Virus record (IMG/VR): IMGVR_UViG_3300045988_119718
Span: 96,001-160,000 of that record
Origin: a virus
Direction: 5' to 3' (one strand)
DNA: 64,000 nucleotides
The notes below the pieces were generated by a model. It was not told the origin of the DNA. It was given only the letters and a program-made list of their open reading frames with translations, and ran no database searches. This document shows, in pieces, positions 54,793 to 62,490 of this stretch (the stretch's first letter is position 1; each line of letters begins with the position of its first letter). The position numbers and the translations under genes were made by a program.

Positions 54793-55032
54793 TTAATCAA
54801 TATGGTATTTTTCTTTCAACTGTTGTATCTTCTGTTTCTGCCCTATAGAATAATTATCTCTTCCAATATTGATTAAACCATTAGCATTAATAATCATATC
54901 TTTAAAAATATTCATATCATTGTTAAAGGTTCCATCATTTCTAGAAATCATCATAGAATTTCTTGGATTAAATACTTCCATAGCAGATTCCCAAAACTTT
55001 TTATTTGGCACATAGATAATATTCAAGCAATC
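54793..55032 (-). CDS. rpoC: RNA polymerase beta-prime subunit (N-terminal-half gene), exon 2. It resumes at D of NADFDG|D, then CLNIIYVP...PRNSMMISRNDGTF.
   Basis: After removal of the intron the junction reads AADFDG|DCLNIIYVP. Downstream, NSMMISRNDGTF matches E. coli ALMMSTNNILSPANGEP. The ORF-track entry 54793..55095 extends spuriously into the intron. Confidence 0.6.
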   Translation of the reverse strand, partial: DCLNIIYVPNKKFWESAMEVFNPRNSMMISRNDGTFNNDMNIFKDMIINANGLINIGRDNYSIGQKQKIQQLKEKYHID

Positions 55033-55399
55033 CTTTTTCTTTACATAGGTCGTTAGTCTATGCAGTTCTCTTAAGAACGTCTTATGCGTTAGCATAAGTA
55101 GAGACTATATCTACATCTCATAGAGATGATACGCACTTCGGATACACTTGTATCCTACTCCTTACGGATAGTCGTTGAACAGAATTAGAAATTCATATTT
55201 CTAAAACTTGCTGCTGATTGTACATTGCATATACTTTTAGGATTTCTCCATGAGTAATCTTATAGATTTTTTCTGTATTTCTACTGCATTCACACTTATA
55301 CTTTCTATCGTATTATGTTGTAGCTCTATAAGCTTTAGCACTTTCCAGCAATTCACGTATTTTAAATTACACTATCGCTAGTATAATTGGCAATTATTT
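55033..55399 (-). mobile_element. Group I self-splicing intron (367 nt, no internal ORF) inserted in the NADFDGD codons of the RNAP beta-prime gene.
   Basis: On the minus strand: P AATTGCTGGAAA, Q AATCAGCAGC, R GTTCAACGACTA, S TAGATATAGTC. P7 pairs GACTA with TAGTC. The exon ends in U (GGU) and pairs with the IGS GCCA. The intron ends in G before GAT. Splicing restores an in-frame DFDGD. Confidence 0.7.
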
Positions 55400-56773
55400 A
55401 CCATCGAAGTCTGCTGCCATAGTTGCAAGAATCTGTAAAGGCATACCCATTGTGTAGTCATCATTAATAGCTACACATTGTACTGCCAGAATAGAACCAT
55501 AATTAATTGTAGGATTACGATTAATCAATACATTAATACCAGAAGTATCGATGATATTTTGAATAATATCTCTAATACGTTTATCCTCTTTCAGTAATCC
55601 TTGCTTATATCTCATATATGCTGTATTATATGAAATATTATAAGTTCTTACTAAAATATTAATTACAGTCTGTTGAAGTAATTCCAATAATGTAAAATAA
55701 GATAATGTAACCTGATCTACTCTAAGTTTAGGGTCGGGAACAATAACTGATCTAGATGTAAATCCACATCTACCACCAATCAGTCTTTTAATAACACCAT
55801 TCTTATCTTTGCAGATATTAATTACTTCAGTATACAGCTCCAGATATCTCTGTTGAAGATTCCACAATAGTACATTTCTATGTTTTGGAATTCTGTAAAT
55901 AGACAATGTGTCATCATTAATCTTAGCTGCTAACTTAGCCATCATATTATAGATACCATTGGTTTTTTCATATGTAAATCTACCATCTCTTCTATCAAAT
56001 GGTCTAAGAGCTGTAGAATACACTGGAATACTATGAATAAAGATTTTATCTCTATTCTCTAAGATATCTTGATAATAATCAGGTTTCTTATTTTTATTCT
56101 TCTTATGAAAATATTCTAGGATTTCATCAAATCTATGATAAAATTCAATCAATCCAATTCCTTTATACTTTTCATCTAACTTAGTCTTTCTAGTAGACCT
56201 CTTAGCTGTAGATTTAATAATTTTAGAAGAATACTTTTGTACTGGTTTACCATTTTCATCGAGATCAATAATTGGTTCTACAATAGAAGCAAACTGATCT
56301 TTACCAATATAGCTTTCCAATACATAGAATAAATTCGGATGAATAATTGGATATCCTTCTTTAAGAGTAATCCAACCAGTCATCTCAAAATCTTCACCTA
56401 CATAGATTACTCTGGAATGACAATATGGGCAGATCATTCCTTCATAATTCTTCCCTTGTGTTCTTTTGCATTTACAAGAATATCTATCTGTAAATGCATC
56501 AGGGTCTTGCATAGTTTTTGTAAACTTGGATGAGAAAATAGAATTATCGCTTTTTAATCCTACATCAATAGCTTTCTTATCATCCTCAGGTTCATCAATA
56601 ATAAACCCTTTTCCCGATATCAGGTCTTTTGCTTTCTCTTCATCTAGATTTAATCGTAACAACCTAGTTTGGAAAGTAAACTTCTTTGATACTGGATAAT
56701 TAACGGTTAAGTTTAATTCCATATTACTCTCCTTCTCTTTAAAAACAAATAAAAAAGAATGAGTCAAGCTCAT
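55400..56773 (-). CDS. rpoC: RNA polymerase beta-prime subunit (N-terminal-half gene), exon 1 (458 aa, ending ...AADFDG).
   Basis: Zn-finger CKCKRTQGKNYEGMICPYCHSRV (E. coli [23 protein letters not shown]). VLINRNPTINYGSILAV aligns with VLLNRAPTLHRLGIQAF. The ORF stops one codon after DFDG. Confidence 0.7.
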
Positions 56774-58755: not shown

Positions 58756-60012
58756 TCACTTCTTTAATCCGAATGCTTTCCATACATCTATTTCATGAAG
58801 TTTAACTGTAGAGTCATGGAATGCCTTTAATGCTTTAAGCTTTAATGCTGATGCTACTTGTGGCATAGCAACACCAATATCTTTAAATCCCGCTCTATAG
58901 AATAGATTTCCTGCACATACATTACAAATCTTATTAGGTTCTTTATATTCACATAAAGAAGAGAATCTCATTCTAACTGTTTTACCTAAATATTTATCTT
59001 TATTAGTAGAATTCAATTCTATAAGTTTATTTCCTTCTACTATATAAGAATACATCATAAGTTTAATATTATACTTATCTAATGTAATTTCTATAGTTCT
59101 CTTAGTACCACAATCAGTTCCTTTAGGAGCTAAAGTAAGATGCTGAAATGCTCTTAATAATAGTTTTTCATTGTACCCGCCTTCAGGGGTCTTCTTAGAT
59201 CTAGAATATGGGCCAGCTGCTAATGCTTTAGCTAATTTAGAATAATCATCTCTAGAAATACCATCAATGTAACTTGACATAGCTACGTCATAACCCTTAG
59301 TAGGGTCTGGGTCTTTAATAGCACCTTTCATTACAAAGATATTTTTAAAGTTATTAGCAAAAGAACCTTTAGCTTTGGAATCATACATATCCATAGATAT
59401 ATCATCTTTAAGTTCTTTTTTAGCATAGTCTAATAATTCTTTTTCTATCTTATCCGCAGCATACATATTTCTTTCTGGATCTGCTAATTCATCTGCATAT
59501 TTCTTTTCTAATTGTTTTTTCATTTTATCAATCTTATAAGAAATAGTAAGCATGTTTGTAGTAAATCCAGAGCATAGTATATTACAATAAGGCTGGAATT
59601 TCTGCTGTCTCATTAAATATCTTTTTAATGCAGACAATGGTAATCTATCTTCCATAATAGCATATGAAATCTGATCATTCATATCGCCTAATACATCTTT
59701 ATTTATAGGCTTATTGATATAATGGAATAAATCAAATAAGTCTTGTTCTATAAAACACTTATTGAACCACCATCTACCTAAAGTAGTAGTAAAAGTATTT
59801 TTATTCTTCTTATTACCAATACCATAAGAATTAGGTGGAATAGTAATAATATCATATGTATTATACTTTGGTGCTTTACCATTTAAAGTACCAAAAGTTT
59901 CCATAAGTTTAGAAAGAGATTCTACATCTTTTTGAGATAAATTTAAAAAATAATCTACTTCATCTTTGTTTGTAATCTTTCTAGCAACACGTTTGTTAGT
60001 AGATACTGCCAT
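58756..60012 (-). CDS. Hypothetical protein (418 aa).
   Basis: ORF with its own RBS AAGGTGG inside the 3' end of the HNH gene. Confidence 0.4.
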   Translation of the reverse strand: MAVSTNKRVARKITNKDEVDYFLNLSQKDVESLSKLMETFGTLNGKAPKYNTYDIITIPPNSYGIGNKKNKNTFTTTLGRWWFNKCFIEQDLFDLFHYINKPINKDVLGDMNDQISYAIMEDRLPLSALKRYLMRQQKFQPYCNILCSGFTTNMLTISYKIDKMKKQLEKKYADELADPERNMYAADKIEKELLDYAKKELKDDISMDMYDSKAKGSFANNFKNIFVMKGAIKDPDPTKGYDVAMSSYIDGISRDDYSKLAKALAAGPYSRSKKTPEGGYNEKLLLRAFQHLTLAPKGTDCGTKRTIEITLDKYNIKLMMYSYIVEGNKLIELNSTNKDKYLGKTVRMRFSSLCEYKEPNKICNVCAGNLFYRAGFKDIGVAMPQVASALKLKALKAFHDSTVKLHEIDVWKAFGLKK

Positions 60013-60015
60013 TTA

Positions 60016-61068
60016 TTAGCTCACCACCTTTTTATATATTCTACCTTTATAAACATTAGAGGCAACTATACCATTTAATCTATTTTTTATATTGCCTCTA
60101 TCTTTTTCAACATAATTATTAGCTCTAAGATATTTATTTAACCCTCTATATTTTCCTATAAATTCATTAGTGGCTTCGTCATATACTTCAAATTCAAGAT
60201 TATACCTTCTATTATTAGATTGCTCTTCTTGTGTTGCCCATGTACAATTTTCAGGAGAATAGTCTTTATTTACATCTATTCTATCCATAGTTGTATTTAT
60301 TAATCCATGTTTATCAGCAAATTCTTTAAAAGAGTTCCAATTATCTAAAAAATAATTATGGAAATCATGCCATCTATCACAAACTTTTATACCTCTCCCG
60401 CCATATAACTTGTAACGATTATTAGATGGATTATAACGTTGCATCATACCTCTCCATCTTTTATAAAAAGCTCTATATGAAGGATCAGTTCTATCCTCGA
60501 TTTCGTTGTAAATTAAATGAGAATATTCATCATGCTTAGTTCCATGCCTTTTACAAAAATTACTGTAATATATTTCTTTTGTATATCCGCAAATTTTACA
60601 TTTAGCTAAAAATCTAGGCATATTATTTTTATATCCTAAAAATTTAATTAATACCATATCTTCAATAGTTTCTCCGACTTTTTCTTTATAATAATCTTCT
60701 TCACAATTTAGCCTATTGTGAAAATAATTATATTTTATAAAATTACTTTTTAATACTTTTTTTATATGCCCACATTTAGTGCATTGAATATTGCAGTATT
60801 GCTCATTACGATCTGTATACTCATCTAAAAGCTCTTTAAACTTATAATCAGTTCTAACTACATTTTTCAAAAAATCTTCATTGCAAGTATCTAGCGAATG
60901 CTTATAATGATATAACGTAATACTCTGCTTTGTTATATGTTTAATATGACCGCATTTAGTGCATTGAATAGTATAAACAGGGGCATAATGTTTATTTCTT
61001 CCATCATACGATATAATTTGGTAATCACCGATTATTTCTCCGACTAAATCTGAATAATTAGTTTTCAT
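60016..61068 (-). CDS. HNH homing endonuclease (350 aa) with three N-terminal Zn-ribbon-like repeats (C.KCGHIK).
   Basis: HNH_3-type motif: FYKRWRGMMQRY...GGRGIKVCDRWHDF...DRIDVNKDYSPENCTWATQEEQSNN. Strong RBS AAAAGGAG. Confidence 0.7.
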   Translation of the reverse strand: MKTNYSDLVGEIIGDYQIISYDGRNKHYAPVYTIQCTKCGHIKHITKQSITLYHYKHSLDTCNEDFLKNVVRTDYKFKELLDEYTDRNEQYCNIQCTKCGHIKKVLKSNFIKYNYFHNRLNCEEDYYKEKVGETIEDMVLIKFLGYKNNMPRFLAKCKICGYTKEIYYSNFCKRHGTKHDEYSHLIYNEIEDRTDPSYRAFYKRWRGMMQRYNPSNNRYKLYGGRGIKVCDRWHDFHNYFLDNWNSFKEFADKHGLINTTMDRIDVNKDYSPENCTWATQEEQSNNRRYNLEFEVYDEATNEFIGKYRGLNKYLRANNYVEKDRGNIKNRLNGIVASNVYKGRIYKKVVS

Positions 61069-61557
61069 ATGCTAATATCTCCTTTTATTTTTATATTAAT
61101 ATAAGTGCTATAAAAACTAATTATTAATTTTTGGTTTTATTGTATTTTTAGAAGTAAATACTATAGTTAATAGTTATTGACTTACGTAAATCGATCAATG
61201 CATTTTTATTCGCTTAGAGTCGTTAATTCTAAACCGCTTATTTAAAGCCGCTTTATGTCTCCATAAAGAGTAGATCATATCATAATCTCTATTAAAGAGA
61301 TTTCTCCCATTTCCACCCACTTGGATGTACGTCATAAAGACTGATCGTTGAACCTTCTCTATAAAAGAGCTTGGCTGCTGATTGTGCATTGTTTATACCT
61401 TTTAGGTTTTAGCCATGAGGCATCATAAAGATTGTTTCTGTTTTTCAACAACCTATGTTTAAAATATAGGTTCTTTATGCTTTAGCAGTTTCCAGCAATT
61501 AAGGAGATTTGCAAATCTATATCGCTATAGACTGGAACCATTGAATAATAATATAGC
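61069..61557 (-). mobile_element. Second group I intron-like element, homologous to 55033..55399. Its boundaries and exons are not resolved.
   Basis: P AATTGCTGGAAA, Q AATCAGCAGC, R GTTCAACGATCA, S TATGATATGATC. The P7 pairing has co-varied to GATCA/TGATC. The embedded ORF 61195..61389 is probably spurious. Confidence 0.5.
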
Positions 61558-62394
61558 TTAACGCTTGTTATTATCGCTTAATTCATTTGGTATGTTTAAC
61601 CTAGTTACAGGTCTGATATTCATATATTCAGCATTATCCACTGTATCAGACAATTTACCATCTGTTTTTACATAACCAGTACAAAGAGAGATAGAGTTAA
61701 TTCTAGCATCATTCAATCCTGTACCATAAAAGAAAAAGTCTCTACAATCGTCTTTGGTAATAGACATCTGCATTGAAACTATAGATTCTACTTCCATATC
61801 AGTAGACTCTTGTGTTGTATATACATTAGCGTCTATAGGAGTACCATCTGTAAATTGCTGTGTAAATACTGGATTAGAATCAAACTTCTTAAAGTAATAT
61901 GCGATTCTATCTGATTTCTCTTTTCTACCAAAGTAAGTACCAGTCTTAGTATAGTCTCTCTGTACTGGGGTTAAATCAGTATCTGGAGTGGTGTATCTAA
62001 ATGGAACAATACCACCATAAGTATCTGTATAAGCTGGATTAATCCATGAAGCATATTTAGCTGCATATACTTGTGAATTTTCTCTACCGCAGCCATCTGT
62101 ACCTACACAGAACAAGCATACTTTTTCTAGTTTATTTTCAGTATTAGATTCTTCAGAATTAGCAAAAGTAAAATCAAGCATAGAATTATAGTTCGGTGTC
62201 TTTTCAGGTTCATCAATATCAAATAACAACCTAGCTATAAATCCACCACCAGCTAATGTCATAATATTATGAGTTGTGAATAATACTTCCCCAGTATCAG
62301 TATACCATGCTTTAATAACTGTTTTAAAATTAGTACGTTCACCAGTTATACCCATGGTATCTTTTAGAGATAAAGGTTTATTTATAATAGACAT
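61558..62394 (-). CDS. Hypothetical protein (278 aa). It lies immediately 5' of the intron-like element, so its 3' end may be misdefined.
   Basis: ORF only. Confidence 0.4.
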   Translation of the reverse strand: MSIINKPLSLKDTMGITGERTNFKTVIKAWYTDTGEVLFTTHNIMTLAGGGFIARLLFDIDEPEKTPNYNSMLDFTFANSEESNTENKLEKVCLFCVGTDGCGRENSQVYAAKYASWINPAYTDTYGGIVPFRYTTPDTDLTPVQRDYTKTGTYFGRKEKSDRIAYYFKKFDSNPVFTQQFTDGTPIDANVYTTQESTDMEVESIVSMQMSITKDDCRDFFFYGTGLNDARINSISLCTGYVKTDGKLSDTVDNAEYMNIRPVTRLNIPNELSDNNKR

Positions 62395-62448: not shown

Positions 62449-62490
62449 CAAAAAAAAATAAAAGGTCGTAAGACCTTTTATTTTTAAATG
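62449..62490 (-). terminator. Rho-independent terminator (AAAGGTCGTAAGACCTTT flanked by A9 and T9).
   Basis: 3' of gene 62503..62970. A near-duplicate lies at 63057..63092. Confidence 0.55.

Follow-up and report, generated by a model that had tools for sequence, protein, structure and literature searches.

Trans homing of the T4 mobE/nrdB kind involves a free-standing HNH-family gene adjacent to one whose intron has no working endonuclease; when the free-standing enzyme starts gene conversion, the intron can be transferred as well (Wilson & Edgell 2009, PMC2790892). In the known cases of collaborative homing the target of the enzyme coincides with the insertion site of the intron; two phage systems have been reviewed (PMC3984707), one of them involving psbA in a cyanophage (Zeng et al. 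2009), and further cases come from T3/T7-like phages and from the ICP1 terminase intron with its adjacent T5orf172 gene (PMC10448857). Introns resembling the one described here are carried by Twort-like (Herelleviridae) phages such as Staphylococcus phage 110, in which two introns annotated as Intron_gpI adjoin a virion structural protein gene. AR9-type phages also have introns in polymerase genes; the annotation of AR9 g270 joins it across an HNH gene.

The window analysed here is a 64,000-nt stretch of the IMG/VR record IMGVR_UViG_3300045988_119718 (record positions 96,001 to 160,000), and all coordinates refer to it. The relevant genes all lie on the (-) strand, in the transcription order 278-aa ORF (62394..61558), flagged region, 350-aa ORF (61068..60016) and 418-aa ORF (60012..58756). 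The initial annotation had assigned the whole of 61069..61557 to a second intron-like element; the actual limits of the intron are 61580..61201, and the rest of the flagged region consists of exon 2 (61200..61148) and an intergenic spacer (61147..61069). The last seven codons and the stop of the 278-aa ORF (61580..61558) are thus intron sequence, and this ORF is exon 1 reading through into the intron. The element is a genuine, intact and ordinary ORF-less group I intron near the 3' end of a gp139-like gene, and from its architecture we take it to belong to subgroup IA2. It adds to a well-known kind and nothing in it challenges current models. For the locus as a whole, the reading that we hold to be very probably correct is that of an ORF-less IA2 intron in the mRNA of a gp139-like baseplate protein, 17 codons before the stop, accompanied by a separate, free-standing endonuclease-like gene.

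Recognition of the intron began with its conserved core. The 12-mer AATTGCTGGAAA of the P element occurs exactly twice in the window, at 61500..61489(-) and 55353..55342(-), as does the exact 10-mer AATCAGCAGC of the Q element (61383..61374(-) and 55219..55210(-)), and exact matches to GTTCAACGAYYA are found in the window only at 61353..61342 and 55180..55169. The initial annotation had described P and Q as identical to those of the rpoC-like intron and had noticed that R and S changed together, from GACTA/TAGTC to GATCA/TGATC, with preservation of the P7 pairing; both observations hold, with R at 61346..61342 and S at 61277..61273. In the alignment of the window's two introns, which have 70% column identity, the S element appears as GATATGATCT at 61281..61272; a second TGATC at 61197..61193 was rejected as S, being exon sequence. 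The covariance-model scan that had been proposed was run with RF00028, for which the curated gathering threshold is 50 bits, on the 421-nt slice 61180..61600 and returned 64.0 bits (E=4.3e-16) over the full model (1-253) at 61556..61251(-); the two annotated introns of Staphylococcus phage 110, used as a positive control, scored 106 and 69 bits. The sequence identity, this match and the covariation described below bear out the claim of a second, homologous group I element with a maintained RNA structure. A default Rfam gathering scan of the whole window and a 2.5-kb Rfam E-value scan each gave no group I intron match, apparently an artefact of the speed filter on long sequence. The absence of a covariance-model score had been put forward as grounds for abandoning the intron, and the blank from the whole window would have been a false negative in that respect. 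Both introns of the window were missed by the whole-window and 2.5-kb scans and recovered only from slices of about 400 nt, and phage introns with large peripheral insertions carry a general risk of false negatives in long-sequence Rfam scans. By blastn the P6-P8 core of the intron was found in 61 phage records, the best matches having 69-75% identity and including the annotated Intron_gpI of Staphylococcus phage 110.

The splice sites were located by comparison with intron-less alleles, as the initial annotation had recommended. A back-translated IMG/VR search produced 50 loci with homologs of the 278-aa ORF, all 50 of which are uninterrupted and continue in frame for about 17 codons past residue 271, where the similarity to the window ends. 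The closest intron-less relative terminates in ...NFPNE-SLIDLRKSITISYAIYF followed by the stop, and more distant homologs have variants of that tail. In the DNA alignment with intron-less alleles a 380-nt insertion lies exactly between GAAT and CATTG, and the 93-95% DNA identity of exon 1 to the intron-less L004 reaches exactly as far as 61582. Exon 1 (61581..62394, (-)) comprises 271 codons and the first base of Ser 272 and ends in ...CCA AAT GAA T, the intron (61201..61580, (-)) starts after a U that is paired to G (GAAU/GUUC) and ends in G61201, and exon 2 (61148..61200, (-)) comprises CA, 16 codons and TAA, giving in the joined translation the product (S)LIDLRKSITINYSIYF and a stop. Joining U61581 to C61200, with the predicted exon junction ...CCAAATGAAT joined to CATTGATCGAT..., yields a 288-aa protein that reads ...IPNE/SLIDLRKSITINYSIYF across the junction, that is, ending ...IPNESLIDLRKSITINYSIYF before the stop; the intron-less protein P0001, 98% identical overall, has exactly the same C-terminus. 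The spliced product ends in ...NESLIDLRKSITINYSIYF, whereas unspliced read-through would end in ...NELSDNNKR. Ligation yields GAA-UCA-UUG, so that removal of the intron restores the uninterrupted conserved reading frame, and the junction is unambiguous, since a shift by one base in either direction alters Ser 272. An alternative 5' splice site at UAUU/AUUCAAUGG, suggested by homology to the first intron and lying after the stop codon, was rejected because only GAAU/...G/CAUUG gives the conserved Ser-Leu-Ile-Asp. A 64-aa ATG ORF at 61195..61389 (-), which overlaps the ribozyme core (P6-P9.2) together with 6 nt of exon 2, was treated as spurious, and there is no endonuclease gene inside the intron. 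Of the options listed in the initial annotation, the correct one is that in which the intron interrupts the upstream gene close to its 3' end, and the 5' splice site, guide sequence and 3' exon that had been left undefined are now in place.

The host gene is a conserved 288-aa gene whose product is structurally homologous to gp139 (DUF7208) of phiKZ, a baseplate protein that forms a band tying the outer baseplate platform to the wedges (PMC13250141). Its identity was obtained only through profiles and the predicted fold; a tblastn search of the 278-aa product against GenBank phages returned nothing, nor did searches of the host protein of the window against Pfam, PHROGs and NCBIfam. A confident AlphaFold model built from 42 sequences (pLDDT 83, pTM 0.80) was compared with the PDB by Foldseek, and ranks 1-8 were all phiKZ gp139 chains (E 6e-10 to 6e-7, TM 0.51-0.61), the best of them with about 280 aligned columns and TM 0.58-0.61, whereas the next match had an E-value of 0.7. 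A profile search against PDB sequences also retrieved gp139 (E 9e-4), and DUF7208 matches six of the seven members of the host family examined. In the model, exon 2 supplies what is predicted to be the last β-strand of the fold (residues 280-287). The gene is called as a truncated protein of 273-278 aa both here and in dozens of metagenomic contigs, with this last β-strand missing, and the genes that group I introns have invaded in jumbo phages now include a structural baseplate gene.

The secondary structure derived by hand comprises P1, an extended P1, P2, P3, P4, P5, P5a-e, P6, P7, P7.1, P7.2, P8, P9, P9.1, P9.2 and P10, and the unconstrained minimum-free-energy fold (z=-3.3) recovers P1ext, P2, P3, P4, P5, P5a-c, P6, P7.2, P8 and P9-P9.2. 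The internal guide sequence CAAUGGUUC (61535..61543, (-)) provides one strand of both P1 and P10. In P1 the guide GUUC (61538..61535) pairs with exon GAAU (61584..61581), placing the wobble U61581-G61538 at the splice site, and this helix is invariant in seven alleles that share the insertion site. In P10 the CAAUG immediately 5' of the guide (61543..61539) pairs with CAUUG of exon 2 (61200..61196); 88.6% of its pairs are kept across the same-site alleles and there is one compensatory C-G to U-A change. P1 has only four exon-side base pairs, and the distance from the 5' splice site to the guide is about 42 nt as compared with about 8 nt in the sister intron (55399..55033). The intervening stretch contains the extended P1, a stem-loop AUAAUAA/UUAUUAU at 61544..61574 (-) where the intron varies. 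Its stem was found in the minimum-free-energy fold and keeps 89.6% pairing across alleles, and its loop is hypervariable in L089 and L108.

The helices of the core are supported by covariation. The P element AAUUGCUGGAAA (61489..61500, (-)) forms the 5' strand of P4 and the Q element AAUCAGCAGC (61374..61383, (-)), placed by exact-motif search and family covariation, forms its 3' strand; P4 is 100% paired across the family with four covarying pairs. The 5' strand of P3, UCUCCU (61502..61507, (-)), pairs with GGGAGA (61308..61303), and this helix is found in twelve mutually complementary versions across related introns, with a compensatory U-A to C-G change among the same-site alleles. P7, which forms a pseudoknot with P3, pairs GAUCA (R, 61342..61346, (-)) with UGAUC (S, 61277..61273), and across seven related IA2 introns its two variable pairs are U-A in five and C-G in two, and C-G in five and U-A in two, respectively, with no broken pair. 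Several unrelated phage introns have the GATCA/TGATC variant as well, and L063 has a third one, GACCA/TGGTC. Two extra hairpins between P7 and P3', P7.1 (GUC-UUUAU-GAC) and P7.2 (CAUCC-AAGU-GGGUG), fold in isolation and covary. When the P5 domain is left out of the seven IA2 introns, standard pairs fill 89.3% of the pair cells as opposed to about 40% with partners slid by 1-3 columns; double changes occur in 33 of 54 pairs, and none of 500 shuffles reached the observed values. Among the seven same-site alleles the 104-pair structure is 98.8% paired, compensatory double changes are seen in P10, P3, P5d, P6a and P7.2, no disruptions occur in P2-P9.2, and the variation falls mostly in the P1 loop and other loops. 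Covariation in these alignments thus supports P2-P9 of the predicted structure, including the change in P7.

The Twort-like IA2 introns have the same core, including P7.1 and P7.2 between P7 and P3', and share with the window intron the stretch GCCAAGCUCU...AGAGAAGGU(U/G)CAACGA and 75% DNA identity over the P6-P8 region. Another shared feature is that the window intron, too, interrupts a virion structural gene and lacks an ORF. It differs from them in host gene and in phage lineage (AR9/phiKZ-related jumbo phage), in having P7 GAUCA/UGAUC in place of GACUA/UAGUC, in its large P5 extension, which is also present in the rpoC-like intron of the window, and in its unusually long P1 loop. The first intron of the window (55399..55033) and its family (L054-L067) have P and Q elements identical to those of the baseplate intron and the same P2 and P5 domain plan, but another insertion site and host gene. 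The P3, P7 and P7.2 sequences are all altered in a compensating way between the two, and the 3' half of the baseplate intron (P6-P8) is nearer to the Twort type.

Splicing would be expected to follow the standard group I mechanism, in which exogenous guanosine attacks after U61581. P1 (GUUC x GAAU) would set the 5' splice site and P10 (CAAUG/CAUUG) would align exon 2, after which the terminal G61201 would be exchanged and the exons ligated to restore the 288-aa protein. If splicing failed, translation would end seven codons into the intron and the final β-strand would be lost. The comparisons establish the splice junctions, the conserved structure and the selection on exon 2; the catalysis itself we infer, and the intron is almost certainly functional.

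The 350-aa ORF (60016..61068, (-)) starts 79 nt after the stop of exon 2 and lies outside the intron. The AT-rich spacer between them (61069..61147, (-)) contains its ribosome-binding site, AAAGGAG, in agreement with the initial view that the gene has a ribosome-binding site of its own; the spacers of L089 and L090 are nearly the same, and that of L004 is unrelated. The label of HNH endonuclease given to the product earlier draws on PHROG families: the ORF matches PHROG 'HNH endonuclease' families with E-values down to 5e-36 and more than 1000 phage loci, many annotated as HNH, but the Pfam HNH families had no match to the protein even at E<=10, the only Pfam matches being to the CapR Zn-ribbon. 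NCBIfam gave nothing relevant, and a Foldseek search with the whole model returned nothing significant. The protein features three tandem CxxC Zn-ribbon (CapR-like) repeats and a conserved C-terminal domain, in which Arg 263 of a 'DRID' motif is invariant in a 47-sequence alignment. By our reading, this arginine may occupy the position of the first histidine in HNH_3 proteins. The protein is best described as HNH-like and endonuclease-like, a putative nuclease. Compared with that of L004 it shows mosaic divergence, the N-terminal third and residues ~173-220 being diverged and the rest 85-95% identical. The gene is free-standing in that it has its own start and ribosome-binding site and is sporadically present, absent or decayed between the same conserved neighbours.

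Close relatives of the window were found among metagenome contigs, and none among GenBank phages. In two ENA metagenome contigs (L089 and L090) the intron is present along with the downstream ORF, with 95-97% identity. Protein-cluster look-ups added four contigs (L092-95) with the intron 100% identical and the ORF 99.6-100% identical, as well as two more diverged lineages (L103-107 and L108-111) in which the introns are 88% identical. Intron and ORF are thus both present in the window, L089, L090 and L092-95; in L103-107 (ENA ERZ156100xx/ERZ156105xx) the ORF has been cut into three fragments by deletions while the intron is intact, and in L108-111 there is an intron without the ORF. L004 and L091 have an intact ORF (72-74% aa identity) without the intron, and L096-102, which represent the most abundant allele and include one record named pig gut metagenome, have neither. 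Truncated gene calls that suggest the intron make up about one third of the contigs among the cluster members listed, and the intron was confirmed for three of these proteins. L103-L107 look like a decaying homing-endonuclease gene beside a persisting intron. One of the four look-up contigs, L093 (ERZ28568765 scaffold_3078), matches the window exactly as far as nt 205 of the beta-C gene, after which it continues into MatE and GHMP-kinase genes, and looks like a chimeric assembly.

The intron and the ORF thus assort independently, the ORF with the pattern of invasion and decay that is typical of homing endonuclease genes, and the persistence of the intron needs no ORF. Relative to L004 and L091, DNA identity is about 94% in exon 1 and drops to 45-65% exactly at the intron site; the low identity extends over exon 2 and the spacer into the ORF, of which it takes in the first third, with a mosaic beyond. 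Judged from these alignments the break fits one conversion tract that would reach from the intron through exon 2 into the 5' part of the ORF, although ordinary recombination between haplotypes, as opposed to endonuclease-driven conversion, could give the same break. The AGC-type allele cannot form P1 or P10, and therefore flanking exon bases must travel with the intron. Co-mobilisation of intron and ORF is plausible: the ORF lies only ~130 nt from the intron site, and a gene conversion that it triggered would probably carry the intron along, which by analogy would be trans homing of the T4 mobE kind. The haplotype block of intron, exon 2 and 5' part of the ORF adds to this likeness with mobE/nrdB, whereas the present ORF lies downstream of the intron-bearing gene and is without a recognisable Pfam HNH motif. 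These combinations among relatives, with a breakpoint exactly at the intron site, constitute a natural data set on how ORF-less introns persist and spread.

Collaborative homing in the strict sense, one of the options of the initial annotation, would go further, with the HNH-like protein cutting the intact insertion site AATGAATCATTRATCGAT in intron-less genomes, the intron protecting its own genome, and intron and endonuclease gene spreading together as a unit. The layout fits, an ORF-less intron and a free-standing endonuclease-like gene ~130 nt apart being the arrangement described for the two-phage systems (PMC3984707) and for T3/T7-like phages, cyanophage and ICP1 (PMC10448857). The divergent haplotype block that begins exactly at the intron site and extends into the ORF is in keeping with such a process, as is the intron-less and ORF-less L096, which has a nearly identical uninterrupted site (17/18 nt). 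However, all combinations occur among close relatives, including the ORF alone (L004, L091) and the intron alone (L108-111), so that the link is not obligatory and an obligate pair is not supported. The TCA-TTG to AGC-CTN recoding, tried as a mark of immunity in genomes with the ORF and no intron, was rejected because genomes that lack both elements (L098-102) likewise have the AGC-type site as their commonest allele, and the nuclease activity of the HNH-like protein is only putative. We therefore regard strict collaborative homing as unlikely, and rate as more doubtful still the specific claim that the HNH-like protein, with its invariant Arg seemingly at the place of the first His of HNH_3, is an active nicking enzyme targeting the baseplate intron site. 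If collaborative homing were true, it would have been caught in jumbo phages at every stage of invasion, fixation, decay and loss, and public gut metagenomes could be used to reconstruct the homing cycle quantitatively.

The sequences of exon 2 bear on whether the intron is removed. The intron-bearing genomes have five distinct exon-2 sequences in which 23 of 54 nt positions vary but only one amino acid does, an N/S polymorphism that is present in intron-less alleles too, and it follows that exon 2 is translated in frame with exon 1 and that the intron is removed in vivo. Exon 2 is thus under purifying selection at the protein level, which lends indirect support to self-splicing. In all intron-bearing alleles the Ser 272 codon is T/CA or T/CG, as the U-G requirement predicts, whereas intron-less alleles mostly have AGC. 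It is very improbable, on this evidence, that the element is a decayed and splicing-incompetent remnant with the baseplate protein made in the truncated 278-aa form, even though P1 is short and many contigs have truncated products of 273-278 aa as called by gene finders. The helices are all undisrupted in seven alleles that differ by ~12%, exon 2 holds its frame and residues despite the 23 variable nucleotides, the C-terminal strand is kept in all homologs, and the read-through tails (LSDNNKR, SV, LSIKASA...) differ between alleles and are not conserved; the degenerate intron, one of the options of the initial annotation, is accordingly rejected in favour of an intact one. Within exon 2, an 18-nt patch (61172..61189, (-)) differs at ten positions when the window, L089 and L090 are compared, while the flanking 100+ nt are nearly identical. 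Every one of these changes is synonymous, and they include codon switches for Ser (TCA/AGC) and Arg (CGT/AGA/AGG). The patch may represent a mosaic of old alleles or a site recognised by a protein.

There is next to no chance that the endonuclease ORF is encoded by the intron in a long 3' extension, also an option of the initial annotation, with the 418-aa RNA polymerase subunit gene as the true 3' exon, as its stop 3 nt before the ATG of that gene might suggest, because the comparative data already refute it: the terminal G of the intron, the conserved 53-nt exon 2 with its stop codon and the 79-nt spacer precede the ORF, the 418-aa protein and the stand-alone AR9 gp264 align collinearly starting at their N-termini, and in relatives the genes of the 278-aa and 418-aa types are neighbours, with no intron and no ORF separating them. 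The idea that these two ORFs are exons around an HNH-bearing intron was likewise rejected, the genes being adjacent but separate in relatives and the 418-aa protein a complete homolog of AR9 gp264. The gene at 58756..60012 (-) is a complete, stand-alone gene for the C-terminal part of the virion RNA polymerase beta subunit; its product is 33% identical to AR9 gp264 (C-terminal half of that subunit), with collinear N-termini, and matches PHROG 2962, and its counterpart is stand-alone in AR9 and in Staphylococcus jumbo phages. As a complete gp264 homolog it indicates that the window comes from an AR9/phiKZ-related jumbo phage. A scan of the region for sigma-70 promoters and terminators gave no enrichment over shuffles and is uninformative for a phage with its own polymerases. 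The only terminator-like hairpin of the region (62454..62485, (-)) is located between a 155-aa ORF and the baseplate gene, close upstream of the latter.

The first intron of the window (55033..55399, (-)) splits a beta'-like RNA polymerase gene inside the catalytic AADFDG/D motif. Its exons are 56773..55400 and from 55032 onwards, corresponding to the ORFs 55394..56773 and 54793..55095, and it reaches exactly 50.0 bits with RF00028, only when a 431-nt slice is scanned. Three related jumbo phages from IMG/VR (L054, L063 and L064) carry homologous introns elsewhere in the same beta' gene, after ...LINRN/PT. The L054 intron has the GAUCA/UGAUC variant of P7, as in the baseplate intron, and that of L064 apparently has a long insertion after P6.
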